From Gilvibacter sp. (GTDB lineage: Bacteria; Bacteroidota; Bacteroidia; Flavobacteriales; Flavobacteriaceae): a stretch of 64,000 nt of DNA. This document shows, one piece after another, positions 2,065 to 36,900 of the stretch (its first letter is position 1; every line of letters starts with the position of its first letter). A model generated the notes under the pieces. The model ran no database searches and was not told the origin of the DNA. It saw only the letters and a list, made by a program, of their open reading frames with translations. The position numbers and the translations under genes are program-made. The stretch covers positions 2,737 to 66,736 of the forward strand of contig NZ_CBFCWJ010000040.1 of the NCBI RefSeq assembly GCF_965601605.1, written 5' to 3'.

Positions 2065-3006
2065 ATGACCTTATCGGTAGTAATACCTTTACTTAACGAA
2101 AAAGAATCGTTACCAGAATTACACGATTGGATTGCATCAGTGATGGAGTCCAATCGTTTTTCTTATGAACTTCTCTTTATTGACGACGGAAGTACAGATG
2201 GCTCTTGGGAGACCATCAAACAATTGCAAGAAAAGAATCCGCAGGTCAAAGGGATTCGCTTTTTGCAAAACTACGGCAAGTCTCAGGCTCTGCACGCTGG
2301 TTTTAAAGCTGCTGAAGGAGATATTGTCATTACCATGGATGCTGACCTTCAAGATAACCCAGAAGAGATCCCAGAGCTCGTTGCCATGATTGAGCAGGAG
2401 GATTACGATTTGGTTTCAGGTTGGAAGAAAAAGCGTTACGACAATACGGTTACTAAAAATCTGCCCTCCAAACTTTTTAATTTTGCCGCACGCAAGACTT
2501 CTGGTGTAAAACTGCACGATTTTAACTGCGGACTTAAGGCTTACAAAAGCACGGTTACCAAGACCATTGAAGTCACTGGTGAAATGCACCGATACATTCC
2601 AGTTTTGGCAAAAAATGCTGGTTTTCATAATATCGGCGAAAAAGTGGTCAAGCATCAAGCCCGAAAGTACGGTACTACCAAATTCGGTATGGAACGTTTC
2701 ATTAACGGCTTTTTAGACCTGATCACCATTTGGTTCCTCTCCCGCTTTGGCAAACGCCCAATGCACTTCTTTGGGGCTATTGGAGCTTTGATGCTGCTGA
2801 TTGGCTTCCTCTTTAGTTTGTATTTAGGGATTGACAAGTTGTTTTTGAACAAAACTGGACGTTTAATCACAGAACGTCCACAATTCTATCTCGCCTTGAC
2901 TGCAATGATTATGGGAACCCAGTTTTTTATGGCCGGATTCATCGGAGAGATGGTGCTACGCAATCGCGACAGAAAAGATCGTTACTACATCAGCGAGACG
3001 ATCTAA
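2065..3006 (+). CDS. Glycosyltransferase family 2 (polyprenol-phosphate glycosyltransferase, ArnC/DPM1-like)
   Basis: SVVIPLLNE, DDGSTD, NYGKSQAL, MDADLQD motifs; two C-terminal TM helices. Confidence 0.92.
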   Translation: MTLSVVIPLLNEKESLPELHDWIASVMESNRFSYELLFIDDGSTDGSWETIKQLQEKNPQVKGIRFLQNYGKSQALHAGFKAAEGDIVITMDADLQDNPEEIPELVAMIEQEDYDLVSGWKKKRYDNTVTKNLPSKLFNFAARKTSGVKLHDFNCGLKAYKSTVTKTIEVTGEMHRYIPVLAKNAGFHNIGEKVVKHQARKYGTTKFGMERFINGFLDLITIWFLSRFGKRPMHFFGAIGALMLLIGFLFSLYLGIDKLFLNKTGRLITERPQFYLALTAMIMGTQFFMAGFIGEMVLRNRDRKDRYYISETI

Positions 3007-6820: not shown

Positions 6821-8542
6821 ATGATTTACATAGCACCAGAAATTTTAGAGCGCGTGAACCAATGGTTGGTTCCGTTTTTTGATGAAACTACGCAACAGGA
6901 GATCAAAGAGATGATCGCAAGCGACCCCAAAGGCTTGGAAGATTCCTTTTACAAGAATTTAGCTTTTGGAACTGGTGGCATGCGTGGAATTATGGGACCG
7001 GGAGATAACCGGATCAACAAATACACCTTAGGCAAGAATACCCAAGGTCTTTCTCAGTACCTCAAAAAGGTGTTCCCTGGTGAATCTTTAAAAGTGGCTA
7101 TTGCTTATGATTGTCGTCACAACAGTAAAAGTTTAGCGGCAGAAGTTGCCAATGTATTTTCTGCCAACGGGATCGAGGTGTTCTTGTTTTCTGACCTGCG
7201 CCCTACTCCAGAACTTTCTTTTGCGGTAAAGCATTTGAACTGTCACTGCGGAATTGTTTTGACAGCATCGCACAATCCGCCGGAATACAATGGTTACAAG
7301 GTATATTGGCAAGACGGAGGTCAATTGGTGCCGCCGCAAGACAAAGAGATCATTGCTGTGATCAATGAATTGGCCTATACCGACATTCAATTTAAAGGTA
7401 ATGCGGACTTGATCCACAATATAGATACTGAACTGGACGAGGCTTTCATCTCAGCTTCATTGGAAAACGGGATGAAAGATACCACGCCAGAACAGCGAGC
7501 AGCCTTGAAGGTGGTCTTTACCCCTTTACACGGAACCTCAGTTACCGTGATTCCAGAAGTATTGACCCGTGCGGGTTATTCACAGATGCAGATCGTAGAA
7601 GCCCAAGCGACTCCAGATGGAGATTTCCCAACGGTTAAATCTCCCAACCCAGAAGAGCCAGAAGCCCTTTCTATTGCCATGAAAATAGCCGAGGACACCG
7701 GAGCAGACATGGTTATTGGGACCGATCCAGATTCGGACCGTTTAGGAATTGCCGTGCGCGATGAAAATGGCAAGATGACCATTTTGAATGGTAATCAAGC
7801 CATGGTTATCAAAACACATTTCTTGTTGGCGCAAAAAGCAGCCAGCAGCGGAATTCAGTCCGAAGATTATATAGCTTCCACCATTGTTTCTACTCCCATG
7901 ATGGGCGTTTTGGCTGCAGATTACGGCATGCCGTGTGAATTGGGCTTGACTGGGTTCAAATGGATTGCCAAAATGGTCAAGGACATGCCTGAACGCAATT
8001 TAATTGGTGGTGGAGAAGAAAGCTTCGGATTTATGGTAGGCGATTTTGTTCGCGATAAAGACGCTGTGACCGCTAGTTTGTTAGCTTGTGAGATCGCTGC
8101 CCAACAAAAAGCCAAAGGCGAAACCTTATTGGACTATGCCGTGGAGCTTTATAAAAAGTACGGAGTTTATCAGGAAGAATTGATCTCCTTTGTAAAACCA
8201 GGGAAGTCTGGTGCAGAAGAGATTCAAGCCATGATGAAGTCCCTAAGAGAAACCCCTTTAAAAGAAATTATTGGAGAATCCGTAGTGCGCGTTGATGACT
8301 ATCAATACAGTGTGAGCACGCACCCTGACGGTTCTCAAACCCCCATCGACATGCCAAAGTCGAACGTTTTGATCTATTGGACCGACCAAGGAACCAAAGT
8401 GGCTGCCCGCCCAAGTGGTACCGAGCCAAAGATCAAATTCTATCTCAGTGCCAATGCGCCCTGGGAAGGCAATTATCGTAAAACGCAAGCCGCATTGCTA
8501 GACAAAATGGATCGCATTGCAGCTCAATTCAATCTGCGCTAG
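6821..8542 (+). CDS. pgm: Phospho-sugar mutase (phosphoglucomutase/phosphomannomutase)
   Basis: FGTGGMRG, TASHNP (phosphoserine), DPDSDR (metal loop), GGEES, RPSGTEPKIK motifs. Confidence 0.95.
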   Translation: MIYIAPEILERVNQWLVPFFDETTQQEIKEMIASDPKGLEDSFYKNLAFGTGGMRGIMGPGDNRINKYTLGKNTQGLSQYLKKVFPGESLKVAIAYDCRHNSKSLAAEVANVFSANGIEVFLFSDLRPTPELSFAVKHLNCHCGIVLTASHNPPEYNGYKVYWQDGGQLVPPQDKEIIAVINELAYTDIQFKGNADLIHNIDTELDEAFISASLENGMKDTTPEQRAALKVVFTPLHGTSVTVIPEVLTRAGYSQMQIVEAQATPDGDFPTVKSPNPEEPEALSIAMKIAEDTGADMVIGTDPDSDRLGIAVRDENGKMTILNGNQAMVIKTHFLLAQKAASSGIQSEDYIASTIVSTPMMGVLAADYGMPCELGLTGFKWIAKMVKDMPERNLIGGGEESFGFMVGDFVRDKDAVTASLLACEIAAQQKAKGETLLDYAVELYKKYGVYQEELISFVKPGKSGAEEIQAMMKSLRETPLKEIIGESVVRVDDYQYSVSTHPDGSQTPIDMPKSNVLIYWTDQGTKVAARPSGTEPKIKFYLSANAPWEGNYRKTQAALLDKMDRIAAQFNLR

Positions 8543-10392
8543 TGCAATATTTTAAACAGATTATCTCTTTCGCGCGCCCCTACAAGCGCTTCGCTCTGGG
8601 GAATATAGTGTGTAATATCTTTTACGCATTATTCAGCGCCTTATCTTTTGTCACGCTGATTCCAATGTTGGACGTGCTCTTTAAAAATGAGCTGGTCAAT
8701 GGACAGCCTGGCACTGCTAAAAAACCAGAGTATACCGGTATAGCAGATACAGTGGACTATTTTAAACAGTATATGGCCTATCAGGTAGACCAATTTGCTC
8801 AAGACGATGCCTCAAAGGCCTTGATCTTGGTGATCGGTCTGGTGATTGTGATGTTCTTCTTTAAGAATATCTTCAATTATTTGGCGATGTATTTCATCAC
8901 GTTCTTGCGCAACGGTGTATTGAAGGATCTCCGCAACGCCTTGTTCGATAAGATCACACGCTTGCCCATTGCCTTTTATTCAGAAAAACGCAAAGGAGAC
9001 ACTATTGCTAGAATCTCTAATGATGTTCAGGAGATTCAGCATTCCTTCCTTTCTATTCTGGAGTTGATCGTAAGAGAGCCGCTGACCATTTTGTTTACCA
9101 TTATTACCATGCTGCTCATTAGCGGCAAGCTGACCATTTTTGTCTTTGTGTTCATTCCGATATCAGGATTCATAATTTCTCGCATCGGAAAATCATTAAA
9201 GCGAAAGTCCGATCGTGTTCAAGCAGAACAAGGAACCTTCCTATCTATTGTTGAAGAAACTTTAGGCGGATTGAAAGTGATCAAAGGATTTAACGGTGAA
9301 GGAGCTTTTAATAAGAAGTTTCAGGCCTCTACCATGCGCTTTTACAACTTTTCAAATAAGCTACTCAACAGACAGAATTTCGCTTCCCCGACCTCTGAAT
9401 TCTTGGGGATCTTTGTGATTGCTATCCTGCTTTGGTTTGGCGGACGTATGGTTTTGATCGATGGTACTTTGGATGGCAGTGATTTTATCGCTTATATGGG
9501 ATTGGCCTATAACATCCTCACTCCGGCGAAAGCGATCAGTAAGGCGAGCTACAGCGTAAAACGTGGAAACGCAGCCGCACAGCGTGTTTTAGAGATCCTA
9601 AACACAGAATCATCACTGGAAGACAAACCCAACGCCGTAGATAAAAAAGAATTCGAGCAAAGCATCAGCTTGAACAATATCTCCTTCAAATATGAAGAGG
9701 AGTATGTGCTCAAGGACTTTAATTTAGAGGTTAAAAAAGGGCAAAGTGTAGCCTTGGTGGGGCAATCTGGTAGCGGAAAAATCTACCATTGCCAATTTAG
9801 TAACACGATTCTATGATGTCAACAAAGGGAGACATCAGCGTTGATGGAACGGATATTAGAGACTTAACCAAAGCTTCCCTGCGAGGGCTTATGGGATTGG
9901 TTACACAAAGATTCCATCCTATTCAATGACACCATTAAAAACAACCTGCTCTTAGGAAAGCCAGACGCTACGGATAAAGAAGTGCATCGCGCCTTAGAAG
10001 TGGCTAATGCCTGGGAGTTTGTAAAGGACTTAACCGCAAGGCGTTGAAACCAATATTGGAGATGCCGGTAATAAACTCTCCGGAGGACAAAAGCAGCGTC
10101 TCAGCATTGCTCGTGCCGTTTTAAAGAAACCCGCCAATTATGGTTTTGGATGAAGCCACCTCGGCCCTAGATACAGAATCCGAACGTTTGGTGCAGGATG
10201 CATTGGAGAACATGATGCAAAACAGAACTTCCCATTGTGATTGCGCACCGACTATCTACCATTCAAGAATGCCCGATCATATCGTGGTATTACAAAAAGG
10301 AGGAAATTGCTGAGCAGGGAACCCACCAACAGTTGTTGGATAAAAAAGGGATCTATCACAGCTTGGTTTCCATGCAGTCTTTAGGCGCTTAA
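8542..10392 (+). pseudogene. MsbA-like ABC exporter (permease plus ATPase); the ATPase half is broken by 8 single-base insertions, probably sequencing errors
   Basis: The ORF track stops at 9816. Removing one base at about 9781, 9828, 10033, 10128, 10232, 10266, 10273 and 10303 restores GQSGSGKST...LVTQDSILFNDTI...[32 protein letters not shown]...[14 protein letters not shown]...SMQSLGA* ending at TAA 10390-10392. Confidence 0.85.
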
Positions 10393-10409
10393 CGCACTCA
10401 GCACATACA

Positions 10410-10500
10410 AACAAAAAAAAAGCAGATCTTTCGATCTGCTCTTTTTTTTAACTGCTGCCGTATTTGGGGCTCACAACAGCAGTATGATTTAATTAACAAC
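10410..10500 (-). ncRNA. Candidate small RNA 1 (hairpin exposing AGCCCCAA, then terminator)
   Basis: -7-like TACATTTA (10505-10512) with TTTG 20 nt upstream. Stem ACTGCTGTTG/CGGCAGCAGT encloses TGAGCCCCAAATA; ends in the terminator. No ATG-initiated ORF. Ends are approximate. Confidence 0.5.
10411..10449. terminator. Bidirectional intrinsic terminator
   Basis: A-run, AGCAGATC-TTTC-GATCTGCT perfect hairpin (10421-10440), T-run. Confidence 0.85.
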
Positions 10501-10653
10501 AGTGTAAATGTAGGAAGCGGGTTTTAATTTTCCAAAAAAATAATGCATTTAATCTTATTTTTTATGCATTTCATCGATGTTTTATTTGAAGTAGTCTATT
10601 CTTTCCTACAAATATTCTAGTATACCAAGAGAACAAAAAAGCTTGAGTATAGA

Positions 10654-10693
10654 CAAAATAAAAACGGGCAAACCCCCGCGGTAAGCCCGTTTT
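10654..10693 (-). terminator. Intrinsic terminator of candidate sRNA 2
   Basis: 9-bp stem AAAACGGGC/GCCCGTTTT; the longer U-tail (TTTTTATTTT) is on the - strand. Confidence 0.65.
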
Positions 10694-10748
10694 CGTAAAA
10701 TAACTAAAGTAGTTGGGGCTACATTTAGTGAACAGAAGAATGTTCTTG
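10654..10748 (-). ncRNA. Candidate small RNA 2 (hairpin with CCCCAA loop, then terminator)
   Basis: -7-like TACATTAG (10753-10760). Stem ACTAAA-T-GTAG/CTAC-TTTAGT with CCCCAA loop, then AAAACGGGC...GCCCGTTTTT hairpin with U-rich tail. Ends are approximate. Confidence 0.5.
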
Positions 10749-10915
10749 ACGGCTAATGTAGAAATATTTTTCCTACAAAAAAATATTTATTGCATTTTAT
10801 CGATGATTTTTAACTTTTTATCTGCTTTTTTATGTGTTTCCCTTATTTTGGACTACAGCATTCACCTATTTTGCTCCTTTTAATTGCTACTGATAATAAA
10901 TTTTAGACCCCAGAT

Positions 10916-10945
10916 TAAACCTTTTTGATACCTTGTAGTCATAAG
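10916..10945 (+). promoter_or_regulatory. ECF sigma-type promoter TAAACC-N16-GTCATAAG (autoregulatory candidate)
   Basis: Identical boxes and spacer length recur at 11501-11530. Confidence 0.7.
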
Positions 10946-10960
10946 GGTAAACCACTACCA

Positions 10961-11503
10961 TTGATTGCTGAATCTACTTTAGTATCGGAATTAAAGGCTC
11001 CCGAAACCCGGGAGGCTGCCTTCAGCACCCTTATGAAGCAGTATAAGGAGCGCTTGTATTGGCATATCCGAAAAATGGTGTATTCCCATGACGACACTGA
11101 TGATGTCCTCCAGAACACCTTTATCAAGGTTTACCGCAGCATAGACTCCTTTAAAGAAGAAAGTAAGCTCTATACCTGGATGTACCGAATTGCCACCAAT
11201 GAAGCCATTACTTTTCTCAATAAGAAAGCCAAACGCATGGAGACTGGAAATGAGGAAGTACAACAACAGGCGGTAGCAAACTTGGCCGCCGATCCTTATT
11301 TTGAAGGAAATGAAATTCAGCTTAAATTACAGCAAGCCATAGCGCAATTGCCGCAAAAGCAGCAGTTGGTTTTTAATATGAAGTACTTTGACGATATGAA
11401 ATACGACGATATGTCTCAGATTCTGGGCACTTCTGTGGGAGCCTTAAAAAGCTCCTACCACATCGCCGTAAAAAAAATAACCGCCCACTTGAAAGCAGAT
11501 TAA
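10961..11503 (+). CDS. ECF RNA polymerase sigma-70 factor
   Basis: Region 2 DDVLQNTFIKV...LYTWMYRIATN and region 4 LPQKQQLVF...LKSSYH. Start probably TTG 10961, since the ORF-track start at 10925 lies inside the promoter. Confidence 0.93.
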   Translation: MIAESTLVSELKAPETREAAFSTLMKQYKERLYWHIRKMVYSHDDTDDVLQNTFIKVYRSIDSFKEESKLYTWMYRIATNEAITFLNKKAKRMETGNEEVQQQAVANLAADPYFEGNEIQLKLQQAIAQLPQKQQLVFNMKYFDDMKYDDMSQILGTSVGALKSSYHIAVKKITAHLKAD

Positions 11504-11530
11504 ACCTTTGATGACAAAAACAGTCATAAG
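11501..11530 (+). promoter_or_regulatory. Second ECF-type promoter TAAACC-N16-GTCATAAG before the anti-sigma gene
   Basis: Overlaps the sigma stop codon; same boxes and 16-nt spacer as 10916-10945. Confidence 0.7.
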
Positions 11531-11539
11531 AGCAGTATC

Positions 11540-12070
11540 ATGAATTTGGAAAACTCACATAACAACACAAATCCCTACGGAATCCCTGAAGGCTACTTTG
11601 AAGGCTTTGAGGCCAGCGTCCAGGCTCGTATTGCGGAAGAAGAACTTCGCGAACTGGTAACTACGCCAGGTTTTGTGACTCCAGATGGTTATTTCGAGAC
11701 CCTAACACCGAAAGTGATTGCTCAATTGCAAAAGCCAGAACCTAAGGTGATCTCATTATTTAGCAGACGTAGCTTATTCGCGGTAGCCTCTGTAGCTGCA
11801 GCTGTGGTATTGATCGTGAGTTTGGTGACTAATTCTGGAAATACCACCACAGATACTTTAGCATTTGACAATATAGACACAGATACTCTTGAAGCCTATG
11901 TAAACAGTGATGCCATTGCATTTACAGACGCTGATTTGATAGACTTTGTCTCTGAGGAAGATTTAGAAAGCAGCTTGTTTAGTGACGAATCATTAACAGA
12001 TGAATCCATTGAGACCTACCTTCTAGACAACCTTGATGATATTGATTTAATAACCACCTACGAGGAATGA
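11540..12070 (+). CDS. Putative anti-sigma factor (single-pass membrane protein)
   Basis: PYGIPEGYFEGF / FVTPDGYFE repeats typical of Bacteroidetes anti-sigma N-termini, one TM helix, acidic C-terminus; directly downstream of the ECF sigma gene. Confidence 0.75.
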   Translation: MNLENSHNNTNPYGIPEGYFEGFEASVQARIAEEELRELVTTPGFVTPDGYFETLTPKVIAQLQKPEPKVISLFSRRSLFAVASVAAAVVLIVSLVTNSGNTTTDTLAFDNIDTDTLEAYVNSDAIAFTDADLIDFVSEEDLESSLFSDESLTDESIETYLLDNLDDIDLITTYEE

Positions 12071-12098
12071 TAGTTTCCTAACTTTGAAGACAGACACT

Positions 12099-12545
12099 AT
12101 GAAAAAACTATACTACATATTTATCTTTTGCTTACTGCTGAGCAGTTTCTCTGCCGATGCGCAGCGACAAAGGCCCAATCCTGGAGAGATTGAAGCTCAG
12201 AAAACGGCGTTTATCACCAATGCCTTAGACCTGAGTGCAGATCAAGCCCAAAAGTTTTGGCCCATTTACAATCAGTCTGAAAAGGCTATGGAAAACATCA
12301 GGCGTCAGCAAAGAGAGGCCTTGCGTCAAGTAAGACTCGGCGGTGGTTCCATTTCAGACGATGATGCCTATGCGCTGATTGAGAATTTGATGAATTGGGA
12401 ACAAGAGATGCTCAACGAACGTAAAAAACTTGTGGCCAATTTAAAAGGAGTCGTCTCACCTCAACAGATATTACGCCTCAAACGCGCAGAAGAAGAATTT
12501 AAAAGACGCCTGTTGCAAGCCATGCAAAACCGTCGAAAGAATTAA
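12099..12545 (+). CDS. Spy/CpxP-like periplasmic protein (sensor of ECF-type sigma factor family)
   Basis: Signal peptide MKKLYYIFIFCLLL, then KTAFITNALDLSADQAQKFWPIYN...SPQQILRLKRAEEEFKRRL. Confidence 0.75.
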   Translation: MKKLYYIFIFCLLLSSFSADAQRQRPNPGEIEAQKTAFITNALDLSADQAQKFWPIYNQSEKAMENIRRQQREALRQVRLGGGSISDDDAYALIENLMNWEQEMLNERKKLVANLKGVVSPQQILRLKRAEEEFKRRLLQAMQNRRKN

Positions 12546-33926: not shown

Positions 33927-36900
33927 ATGACGCGATCATTCACGCTAATTTGCCTCTTGTGCGTATCATTCACCTTTGCACAAAAAGAGGATGCTTCATG
34001 GGACGTAACCGCTCCTGGAGACGATTTCAATTATAAAACGCACCGCTTTACCACTACTGAGGGTACTTGGATGAATCTGGATGTAAGTCCAGATGGTAAG
34101 ACCATTGTCTTTGACATGCTTGGCGATATTTACAGCCTCTCAACCAATGGCGGGAAGGCCAAAGTGTTGCGCAGTGGAATTCCTTTTGAAATTCAGCCGC
34201 GATTTAGCCCAGACGGAACCAAGATTCTCTTTACTAGTGATGCGGGTGGCGGTGATAATATTTGGGTCATGGATGCTGATGGATCCAACGCTAAACAGAT
34301 CACCAAAGAAAACTTTAGACTGCTCAACAACGCTGCATGGATGCCAGACGGCTATTCGTTTGTAGCTCGTAAACACTTTACTTCTGGGCGTTCCTTAGGA
34401 GCTGGAGAAATGTGGCAGTATCACATCACCGGCGGGAGCGGAATCCAATTGACCAAACGCAAGAACGATCAGCAAGACGTGAATGAGCCTGTGATTAGCC
34501 CTGATGGAAAGTACCTCTACTACAGCGAGGACGTTTATCCTGGAGGCTTTTTCCAATACAACAAAGACCCGAATAAGCAGATTTATGTCATTAATCGCTA
34601 TGAATTTGCCACGGGTAAAACCACTCAGCTTACTGGAGGACCTGGTGGTGCAGCACGTCCGCAGCTTTCTCCAGACGGAACCATGATGGCTTTTGTAAAA
34701 CGGGTCCGCACTAAATCAGTTTTATACATTCACAACTTAGAGACTGGCGTAGAATACCCAGTATTTGATGCGCTGAACAAAGATCAGCAAGAGGCTTGGG
34801 CTATCTTTGGCGTTTATCCAAACTTTGACTGGTTGCCAGACAACAAGCATTTGGTCTTTTGGGCAAAGGGAAAGATCCACAAGCTCAATATTGCAGACCT
34901 TAGCCTTTCTGTGATTCCTTTTGAGGCGGATGTAAAACTTGAGTTGGCAGAAACGGTTCATTTCAACACGCCCATTTCTGATAAAGACTTCACCAGTAAA
35001 GCTATTCGACAAGCTGTTACCTCACCTGATGGGAAAACGCTTGTTTTTCACGCCTTGGGATATTTATGGACCAAGTCCTTACCTAACGGCACCCCTAAGA
35101 GATTAACTCAAGGCACCGATTTCGAGTTTGAGCCAAGCTTCTCCCCAAACGGAAACAGGATCGTTTTCGTTACTTGGAACGACTTAGAAAAAGGTGCCGT
35201 TTTTTCCATCCCAACCTCAGGTGGGTCGGCAACGCGACTCACTTCGGAAAAAGCGATTTACAGAACTCCGGCCTACAACAGAGCGGGAACGCAGATCACA
35301 TTTAGACGAGAAGGTGGCAATACCGACCAAGGATTCACTTATACTAAAGACAGTGGTCTTTACAGTATGAATGCCGATGGGAGCGGAATGAAGAAACTTA
35401 CCACAGAAGGTGAATATCCGAGCTATAACAGTACGGACAGCCGTATTTATTACCAAACTGGAGGCACCTACTTTGGAAATAACACCAAAAGTTTGCACAG
35501 TGTTGATCTCAATGGGCAGGACAAACAAACTCACGTGAGCTCCAAATATGCAAACCGCTTGGTACCGAGTCCAGACGATCAGTGGATCGGGTTTAGCAAC
35601 TTGCATCGCGCTTATATTGCGCCTTTGGTGCTCAATGGAAAAACCCAAGACCTCACGCCAAACAGCACTAATGTTCCGGTGGTTCAAGTCAGCAAGGATG
35701 CTGGGATCAATATACACTGGTCTTCAGATAGTAAAGCTATGATGTGGACTTTAGGTGATGAATATTTTAAAAACGATCTGACTGACAAGTTTGGCTTTAT
35801 TCCTGGTGGAAAAGAAGAGGCCACTGACATGAGTGAATCGGGCATAAAAATTGGCTTACAACCGGCCGTGGACAAACCCAGCGGTGTTATTGCCTTTACC
35901 AATGCTCGAATTATTACGATGGAAGGCGATCAAGTCATAGAAAATGGAACCATAGTCATCAAGGCCAATAGAATTGCTGCTGTTGGAGCAGCTGATGATG
36001 TAAGCGTTCCAAGTGGCGCTAAGGTCATGGATATGAGTGGCAAGACCATTATGCCAGGTATGGTTGATGCGCATGCACATCTAGGAGCCTTCCGCTACGG
36101 ACTCACTACGCAGCAAAACTGGCAACTTACAGCCAATTTGGCCTTTGGTGTAACCACAGCGCATGACCCATCAGCAAATACAGAGACGGTCTTTACCTTA
36201 TCTGAAATGGTAAAAGCAGGTAATCTTGTTGGACCACGCATCTACTCTACCGGTTTTATCCTTTACGGTGCTGATGGAGATTTTAAAGCGGTGATAAACA
36301 GTTTAGACGATGCCAGATCGGCCATAAAAAGAACTAAAGCTTTTGGAGCAACTTCTGTGAAGAGTTACAACCAACCCAGACGTGAGCAGCGCCAACAGGT
36401 CATGCAGGCGGCGCGTGAGTTGGGCATCAATGTAGTGCCAGAAGGCGGATCCACCTTCTTCCATAACCTGACTATGGTGATGGACGGACATACCGGTGTT
36501 GAACACAACATTCCAATTGCACCAGTTTACAAAGATGTGATTGAACTTTGGAAGAATTCTGGAACAGGATACACCCCGACGCATATTGTAAACTATTCCA
36601 GCATGAGTGGTGAATACTACTGGTATCAAACCACCAATGTTTGGGAGAATGAAAAATTGCTGAAATACACACCCAGAAGTGTCATTGACGCGCGTTCCAG
36701 ACACCGCACTATGATTCCTATGGAAGAATATACCAATGGGCACATCTTGAATTCACAGACCACGACCGCCTTGGCGAATGCTGGGGTAAAAGTAAATATG
36801 GGAGCTCATGGACAATTGCAAGGAATGGGCGCCCATTGGGAAACCTGGATGCTTGCTCAAGGAGGAATGACTCCGTTACAAGCCTTGCAGGCGGCAACCA

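Follow-up and report, generated by a model that had tools for sequence, protein, structure and literature searches.

Two Candidate Small RNA Genes between an ECF Sigma Operon and msbA

The DNA analysed here is a stretch of 64,000 nucleotides (nt) from Gilvibacter sp. (contig NZ_CBFCWJ010000040.1, positions 2,737 to 66,736 of the forward strand), hereafter called the window. Between an msbA-like exporter gene and an operon that begins with the gene of an extracytoplasmic function (ECF) sigma factor, its minus strand carries two tandem units, each of which has the layout of a small RNA (sRNA) gene: upstream boxes, a promoter, a hairpin with a CCCC run in its loop and, 3′ of it, a terminator hairpin followed by a T-run (as shown in Table 1). 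The −7 boxes, the loop hairpins and the terminator hairpins had been described in the original prediction, which was made from the letters of the window alone, and all of these elements are found where they had been placed. Both promoters fit the Bacteroidetes consensus TTTG / TAnnTTTG (PMC9723704); they are of the housekeeping −33/−7 type and not of the ECF type.

Sequence shared by the two units is largely confined to the loop and their promoter regions. The 8-mer AGCCCCAA (plus strand TTGGGGCT) is present in both, at 10464-10471 and 10713-10720, and a third copy lies elsewhere in the window (2771-2778). According to RNAfold, AGCCCCAA(A) forms the tip of a 12-base-pair (bp) stem in unit 2, and the loop of unit 1 tops a 6+4-bp stem with one bulge. 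The minimum free energies are −31.9 kcal/mol for unit 1 and −35.2 kcal/mol for unit 2, and none of 200 shuffled sequences folds as well in either case. The terminator of unit 2 is bidirectional in the terminator scan and also serves msbA. As for coding capacity, the units have no real open reading frame (ORF), as had been supposed: the sole one is a frame of 33 amino acids (aa) that begins with TTG and reads through the terminator, and the insertions and deletions in the family alignment described below are not multiples of three, so a coding function was rejected.

Taken alone, the loop motif is uninformative, because its frequency and placement match chance: the 8-mer AGCCCCAA occurs 81 times in the genome against about 67 expected, which is no enrichment, and GCCCCAA is no commoner in the hairpin loops of the genome than its permutations are. 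Since the motif count is unremarkable, the case rests on the arrangement of the elements and on their conservation. More combinations of promoter, loop hairpin and terminator had been thought worth seeking in the genome, and one other copy of a promoter with a AGCCCCAAAUC loop does exist; it is the mRNA leader of a CAP-domain lipoprotein (C18), so the genome offers few further units of the sRNA kind.

Table 1. Features of the two units, of the adjoining genes and of the Rfp13-type genes in the same genome. Positions are those of the window unless a C number precedes them.
Feature	Position	Strand	Remark
Unit 1, upstream box ATCGATAAAATGCA	10791..10804	-	box type kept upstream of family members in other genera
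Unit 1, promoter	10753..10779	-	-33 TTTG (10776-10779), -7 TACATTAG (10753-10760); invariant in six species of the genus
Unit 1, predicted sRNA, ~88 nt	10660..10747	-	fold z -4.9; R2 86 bits (partly circular)
Unit 1, 5′ hairpin	10730-10745	-	
Unit 1, loop hairpin	10703-10729	-	loop CCCCAA 10713-10718
Unit 1, terminator	10661-10693	-	invariant G-run 10673-10677 in apical loop
Unit 2, upstream boxes	10544..10578	-	ATCGATGAAATGCA (10565-10578), GATTAAATGCA (10544-10554)
Unit 2, promoter	10505..10536	-	-33 TTTG (10533-10536), -7 TACATTTA (10505-10512)
Unit 2, predicted sRNA, ~88 nt	10412..10499	-	fold z -6.8; terminator scan match; R1 47 bits (partly circular)
Unit 2, loop hairpin	10451-10483	-	loop AGCCCCAAA 10463-10471
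Unit 2, terminator	10413-10448	-	
msbA-like ABC exporter gene	8542..10395	+	convergent; 3′ end abuts unit 2 terminator
Divergent operon (the three genes below)	10925..12545	+	
ECF sigma factor	10925-11503	+	Sigma70_r2/r4 (Pfam)
Putative anti-sigma membrane protein, 176 aa	11540-12070	+	no Pfam match
LTXXQ/Spy-like periplasmic protein	12084-12545	+	Pfam
Rfp13-type genes, tandem copies	C18:61800-61880 and C18:63160-63240	+	seed UUUGGGGC
Rfp13-type gene, variant with longer 5′ hairpin	C17:26850-26935	-	seed UUUGGGGC

A Conserved RNA Family in Flavobacteriaceae

Within the genus, both units are near-invariant in five other species, and the 150-nt spacer between them is scrambled; the stem of unit 2 shows compensatory exchanges there, from U-A to C-G and from C-G to U-A. 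The layout is shared by other genera, in which the ECF sigma gene is followed by one or more sRNAs encoded on the other strand and then by the 3′ end of msbA, and the hairpins and the loop are retained in these related regions, whose comparison had been suggested along with the original prediction. Altogether 80 named Flavobacteriaceae loci were gathered through a scan with the ECF sigma protein, including those of Winogradskyella, Algibacter, Tamlana, Gelidibacter, Seonamhaeicola, Psychroserpens, Flavivirga and Planktosalinus. In about 60 of them, the strand opposite to the sigma gene carries CCCCAA at a distance of 210-270 nt from the start of that gene, within a unit that has, besides a hairpin and a terminator, two ATCGATnAAnTGnA boxes and the promoter elements TTG (−33) and TAnnTTTG (−7), and the synteny of sRNA and ECF sigma gene holds in about 63 of the 80 loci.

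The alignment of 59 units from different genera shows compensatory changes in 14 of the 16 pairs of hairpin 1 (one of these pairs, for example, is GC in 27 sequences, AU in 24 and GU in 7), and the covariance model R1, representing the unit-2 type, was built from it. R1 has exactly one match per genome in 59 of 151 Flavobacteriaceae genera (about 40%) and zero matches in about 90 genomes from other families of the order. Ten R1 matches were picked blind to their context, and all ten lie between an ECF sigma gene and msbA. In the genome of the window, unit 2 is the only significant match with 47 bits; this score, like that of unit 1 with the second model, R2, is partly circular, because the units of the window sat in both seed alignments, and the E-values of both models are rough. 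Independent support for the membership of the two units comes from the conservation in the genus and in the family. A weak R1 match (29.7 bits) was also seen in the same genome at C14:14947-15029 (+), with a terminator and no CCCCAA loop; it begins with AACCUAUUAUGUAUGGUUC, a sequence similar to that at the 5′ end of the unit-1 types in other genera.

R2, the model of the unit-1 type, has one copy per genome in 15 of the 151 genera, and in 12 of these 15 its match lies about 230-260 nt upstream of an independent R1 match, so the tandem pair is old and not a recent duplication. Besides the 12 genera found by both models, the tandem layout is present in this genus and in genus G022, where it was recognised by eye. 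In the unit-1 type, AGCCCCAAC and the terminator-loop GCGGGGG are invariant and the stems covary. The apical loop GCGGGGG of the unit 1 terminator (10661-10693, minus strand) could also form a kissing pairing with the AGCCCC loop of unit 1 itself or of unit 2; a C/U change between genera retains a G-C or G-U pair in this candidate, and both sides are otherwise invariant.

By this comparative evidence, both units look like real, conserved RNA genes. The unit-1 type is, judged from the alignments, a distinct paralogue, and the two units are ancient paralogues in a family specific to Flavobacteriaceae: each of them matches its model and stands between msbA and the ECF sigma operon, with the sigma gene on the other strand. 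The earlier idea of paralogous sRNAs that present a fixed loop on stems of varying sequence is thus borne out by the alignments across genera and by their covariation.

The family is absent from Rfam and has not been described in the literature searched. At gathering thresholds nothing from Rfam matches in the 64-kb window, in agreement with the first impression that the units cannot be assigned there; with Rfam 15 (including RsaE, CsrB/RsmZ, Flavo-1 and 6S) no relevant match is obtained at E ≤ 10 in 10300-10950, and in five loci with typical family members there is none at E ≤ 0.001. Among the candidates considered, BTnc231 (RF04180) was rejected, since unit 2 reaches 34.1 bits where 80.4 bits are required for gathering, and nothing beyond the generic shape of hairpin plus terminator aligns. 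Membership in the CsrB/RsmZ type was rejected as well, each unit having one C-rich loop and no GGA repeat array. Nor are the units Rfp13 sRNAs, for they hold the reverse complement of parts of the Rfp13 core ACAUAAGUAGGUUAAGUUYAUGGUAGAUUUGGGGC and not the core itself.

Complementarity to Rfp13 and Co-Occurrence with It

Rfp13 is an sRNA of 73 nt from Flavobacterium psychrophilum, described as "induced under iron depletion", with the sequence CCAUUACAUAAGUAGGUUAAGUUAUGGUAGAUUUGGGGCAAAAAAGGCGG..., in which ACAUAAGUAGGUUAAG and AGAUUUGGGGC are contained (PMC9723704 supplement). It is multicopy, is induced by iron depletion and in stationary phase, and has no known target. Three Rfp13-type genes, which are absent from Rfam, are present in the genome of the window, namely two tandem copies in C18 and one variant in C17 (as shown in Table 1). 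The Rfp13 core does not differ between the 11 named genera compared, and the exact 29-nt pattern occurs in 122 of the 151 genera sampled, in 1-5 copies and with 0 matches in the reversed control, which places Rfp13 among the most conserved non-coding sequences in Flavobacteriaceae. Its seed is 95% unpaired in an accessibility calculation.

Two elements of Rfp13 answer to two elements of the family. The conserved 5′ motif of the family, CUUAACCUACUUAUGU, has its exact complement in ACAUAAGUAGGUUAAG of Rfp13, and the loop region of the family, GCCCCAAAUCU, has its complement in AGAUUUGGGGC. The complementary elements run in the same 5′-to-3′ order in Rfp13 and in the family, so the one RNA is not just the antisense strand of the other. 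The five bases that follow CCCCAA read R-U-C-U-R in 42-58 of the 59 family sequences, as pairing with UAGAUUUGGGG requires; the alternation of A and G keeps the pair with U, and some of these positions belong to a stem whose remaining positions covary freely. A contiguous run of at least 9 pairs between the 5′ end of the sRNA and the Rfp13 loop is possible in 88% of the members and in 4% of the shuffled sequences, and a further (C)CCCAAAUC stands in the terminator loop of many members.

For the two units of the window, an accessibility-aware single-helix estimate predicts a pairing of unit 2 with Rfp13 through GCCCCAAAU:AUUUGGGGC at −12.7 kcal/mol and of unit 1 through GCCCCAA at −9.0 kcal/mol. 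The shuffled means are −3.1 kcal/mol (unit 2) and −4.5 kcal/mol (unit 1), and none of 100 shuffles reaches either observed value; as computed, the units thus offer accessible sites, complementary to the seed of another sRNA in the same genome, as sponges do. RNAcofold gives −9.4 and −5.5 kcal/mol for the units, within the range of the shuffles, being a tool that has no means of representing a helix between a hairpin loop and a second RNA. Among the modes of action considered at first was pairing with GGGG tracts. This is the mode now favoured, and its best-supported partner is the single-stranded seed GAUUUGGGGC of Rfp13-type sRNAs.

The family also occurs only alongside Rfp13. All 59 R1-positive genomes contain it, against 122 of 151 overall (hypergeometric 7e-8, phylogeny ignored). 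Among the matches listed, and with phylogeny uncontrolled, most genomes with two units have both of the Rfp13 seed variants GGUAGAUUUGGGG and GGUAAGAUUUGGGG, and genomes with a single unit mostly carry only the GGUAGAUUUGGGG variant. In the genomes with two units, UAGAUUU tends to be accompanied by either UAAGAUUU or the C17 type. The coincidence of two units and two seed variants may reflect shared ancestry alone.

Candidate mRNA Targets of Rfp13

The leader of the CAP-domain lipoprotein mRNA (C18:~35300-35450, minus strand) is a near-complete complement of Rfp13 and has the loop CCCCAAAUC together with a start-codon motif; the start region AUGAACCUACUUA matches the Rfp13 loop too, and the motifs of this leader are kept in all six other genomes of the genus that were searched. 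At C37:~10650-10720 (minus strand), the leader of a secreted protein of at least 800 aa is nearly the full reverse complement of Rfp13, again with the loop CCCCAAAUC and the start-codon motif. The gains in RNAcofold with Rfp13 are −22.4 kcal/mol for the CAP leader and −29.6 kcal/mol for the C37 leader, and 0 of 100 shuffles reach either value. Judged from this complementarity, both leaders are strong candidates for Rfp13 targets. In the mRNA leaders the motif order is B...A, colinear with Rfp13, and in the sRNA family it is A...B, so the sRNAs are not plain copies of a target leader.

Another site was noticed at C24:~68900-68960 (minus strand), where CUUAACCUACUUAUG spans the start codon of a small Cys-rich, zinc-ribbon-like ORF and is complementary to the Rfp13 loop over 15 nt; a paralogous ORF lies just upstream of it.

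Proposed Mechanism and Alternative Explanations

In the mechanism proposed here, two independently transcribed sRNAs of about 88 nt would arise between the envelope-stress-type ECF sigma operon and msbA, each driven by a housekeeping-type (−33/−7) promoter with ATCGATnAAATGCA boxes and ending at an intrinsic terminator. Their working part would be the loop (A)GCCCCAA(A), pairing with the single-stranded G-rich seed UAGAUUUGGGGC of Rfp13-type sRNAs, and in this way the units would compete with the leader-bearing mRNAs for Rfp13 and tune the Rfp13 response. A role of this direction is suggested because the same loop is shown in mRNA leaders that are near-perfectly complementary to Rfp13. This reading of the units, as decoys (sponges) of Rfp13 or as antagonists in a mutual relation with it, is given about an even chance and no higher, because their transcription and pairing are predicted ones, the pairing is short in this genus, and mRNAs offer UUGGGGC as well. 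Somewhat short of that level, a circuit of sRNA against sRNA may be drawn for Flavobacteriaceae, in which stand-alone decoys by the ECF operon would carry one to three sites that mimic Rfp13 targets; it is likewise put forward tentatively that the real Rfp13 targets in such a circuit (secreted proteins and lipoproteins, e.g., the CAP-domain one) would bear the same loop plus the start-codon motif.

Several observations weigh against the decoy role. The complementarity in this genus is short, 9 nt in unit 2 and 7 nt in unit 1, and the 5′ motif present in most other genera is missing from both units here. With the motif order A...B, no single colinear duplex of the sRNAs with Rfp13 is possible. 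Since Rfp13 is invariant, evidence of covariation between seed and loop could come only from its seed variants, and the one informative case is mixed: the loop at locus L024 fits the UAAGAUUU variant, and the loop at locus L085 mismatches the Rfp13 of its own genome. There are 63 Rfp13-positive genera without the family, and both the co-occurrence and the copy-number correlations are confounded by phylogeny. In addition, the family members were first collected by requiring CCCCAA. When the loci without CCCCAA were rechecked with the model, three more members appeared, with the loops CCCUAA, CCCAAA and CCCAAG, so the loop is strongly yet not absolutely fixed.

The Rfp13-type sRNAs are also not the sole plausible partner, because several mRNAs of this genome carry UUGGGGC 20-30 nt upstream of a start codon, as is the case for the long ORFs at C26:55447(+), C26:43554(-), C48:13135(-), C39:29184(+) and C37:133980(+). 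The units could then be ordinary trans-acting sRNAs whose C-rich loop pairs with UUGGGG(C) in the initiation regions of mRNAs, the match to Rfp13 being incidental or secondary. Such pairing would be about as long (7-9 nt) as that with Rfp13, and there is a precedent for it in RsaE/RoxS and RNAIII of Firmicutes. This explanation is rather unlikely all the same, for it accounts neither for the second and third Rfp13-complementary motifs of other genera, nor for the perfect co-occurrence with Rfp13, nor for the conserved flanks of CCCCAA, which are the exact complement of Rfp13.

A role in protein binding is less likely and seems improbable for these units. The loops would be sites for an RNA-binding protein (e.g., an RRM-1 protein like RbpB of Bacteroides), which would be titrated or delivered in the manner of CsrB or 6S. 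The same loop does stand on several RNAs, namely the two sRNAs and at least two mRNA leaders, and RbpB binds multicopy sRNAs sequence-specifically (PMC11697453). The titration in the manner of CsrB/RsmZ that had been offered at the outset finds no support, however, in RNAs with one or two loops each and no array of GGA-type repeats; besides, a perfectly complementary and accessible RNA partner exists in the same genome, and the exchange of A to G after CCCCAA keeps a wobble pair with U, which fits pairing between RNAs. Less likely too, and hardly probable, is that the units have no trans function, being relics of duplicated promoter-plus-leader modules or exerting an influence in cis on the ECF sigma gene and msbA through their divergent transcription and shared terminator. 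The strict synteny with these two genes, the bidirectional terminator of unit 2 that also serves msbA, and the promoter boxes and leader hairpin common to the units and the CAP-lipoprotein gene would suit such an origin or role. It is at odds with the age of the tandem arrangement of unit 1 and unit 2, and with the upkeep of the RNA as a single copy in each genome across at least 59 genera, its stems covarying and its loop staying fixed, which indicates selection on the RNA itself.

Neighbouring Genes and Upstream Boxes

The three-gene operon on the other strand looks like an envelope-stress module, with a putative anti-sigma factor in the 176-aa membrane protein and a Spy-like periplasmic protein behind the sigma gene. 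As for the msbA-like gene, the half that encodes the nucleotide-binding domain (9780-10395, plus strand) contains at least 7 frameshifts over all three frames, the first of them right after the Walker A motif GQSGSGK; it is either a pseudogene or a poorly assembled stretch.

The ATCGATnAAATGCA boxes, which stand just upstream of the −33 element, occur 15 times in the genome, where their reversed control occurs twice, and the distal box region of unit 2 is identical at 26 of 26 nt in another genus. Boxes of this type also precede HU, valS and lipoprotein genes. A special regulon of boxes common to Rfp13 targets is therefore disfavoured, since HU and valS carry them too, and the boxes look rather like a general element, probably one for a general activator or a UP-like, strong-promoter element. 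The box sequence was also seen upstream of a gldJ/K-like gene in a third genus.

Significance

Very few sRNAs with a known mechanism have been described in Bacteroidota, a phylum without Hfq and ProQ and largely without Shine-Dalgarno pairing. What the present analysis supplies is a conserved partner RNA family for Rfp13, two covariance models and candidate Rfp13 target leaders, by which the question of the targets of Rfp13 is made directly testable, e.g., by compensatory mutations. The neighbourhood of the units further suggests that envelope stress, represented by the ECF sigma / Spy-like operon, may be connected with the Rfp13 response. If the proposed circuit is true, Bacteroidota would have its first RNA network of the sponge type, and Rfp13 would gain its first targets and its first regulator.

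Comparison with Known Systems

The closest system is that of Rfp13 and Rfp15 in F. psychrophilum (Guerin et al. 2021, ISME Commun, PMC9723704). Like the units, these sRNAs are short, come from the same bacterial family and have a terminator and a sigma-A promoter. They are also multicopy, and Rfp13 is found in the same genomes as the units. However, the units are not homologous to Rfp13 and bear the complement of its loop and seed, and they lie between the ECF sigma gene and msbA, whereas Rfp13 stands beside sodA/purF in other genomes.

In design, the units resemble the sponges of Proteobacteria (SroC-GcvB, AgvB-GcvB, 3′ETS-leuZ-RyhB/RybB and chbBC-ChiX), in which an RNA offers sites that resemble those of targets and complement the seed of another sRNA, the same sites recurring in the mRNA targets of that sRNA. 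Most of the Proteobacterial sponges are Hfq-dependent processing products of mRNAs or tRNA spacers, whereas each unit appears to be a gene of its own, with a separate promoter, in a phylum that lacks Hfq, and the interaction is a predicted one.

It is well established in Firmicutes that sRNAs with C-rich loops, such as RsaE/RoxS and RNAIII, bind G-rich initiation regions. These sRNAs and the Rsa family share with the units a similar size and the use of C-runs in hairpin loops as the pairing element. They show no similarity to the units in sequence or model (no Rfam match at E ≤ 10), and the Shine-Dalgarno sequences that they bind are missing from most Bacteroidetes mRNAs.

Within the phylum, BTnc231 and FopS/GibS of Bacteroides thetaiotaomicron are likewise intergenic, with a −33/−7 promoter, one stem-loop and a terminator, and FopS also forms a paralogous family. 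FopS differs in that its single-stranded 5′ end pairs with susC start regions and that it is bound by RbpB, and no motif of these sRNAs was found in the units. A closely similar hairpin is known from Rfp47 of F. psychrophilum (PMC9723704 supplement), whose 3′ end has the sequence CUUUAGU-CCCCCAA-CUAAAG, to be compared with ACUAAAUGUAG-CCCCAA-CUACUUUAGU of unit 1. It is located near rnz and annotated with 118 nt, including a long AU-rich 5′ part, and R1 has no match in the genomes that appear to be Flavobacterium; judged from its hairpin, Rfp47 may be a distant Flavobacterium relative of the family. Set against all these systems, an sRNA that runs from promoter to terminator and acts by base pairing, or possibly as a sponge, is of a known kind, and what is new is the family itself and its proposed partnership with Rfp13.

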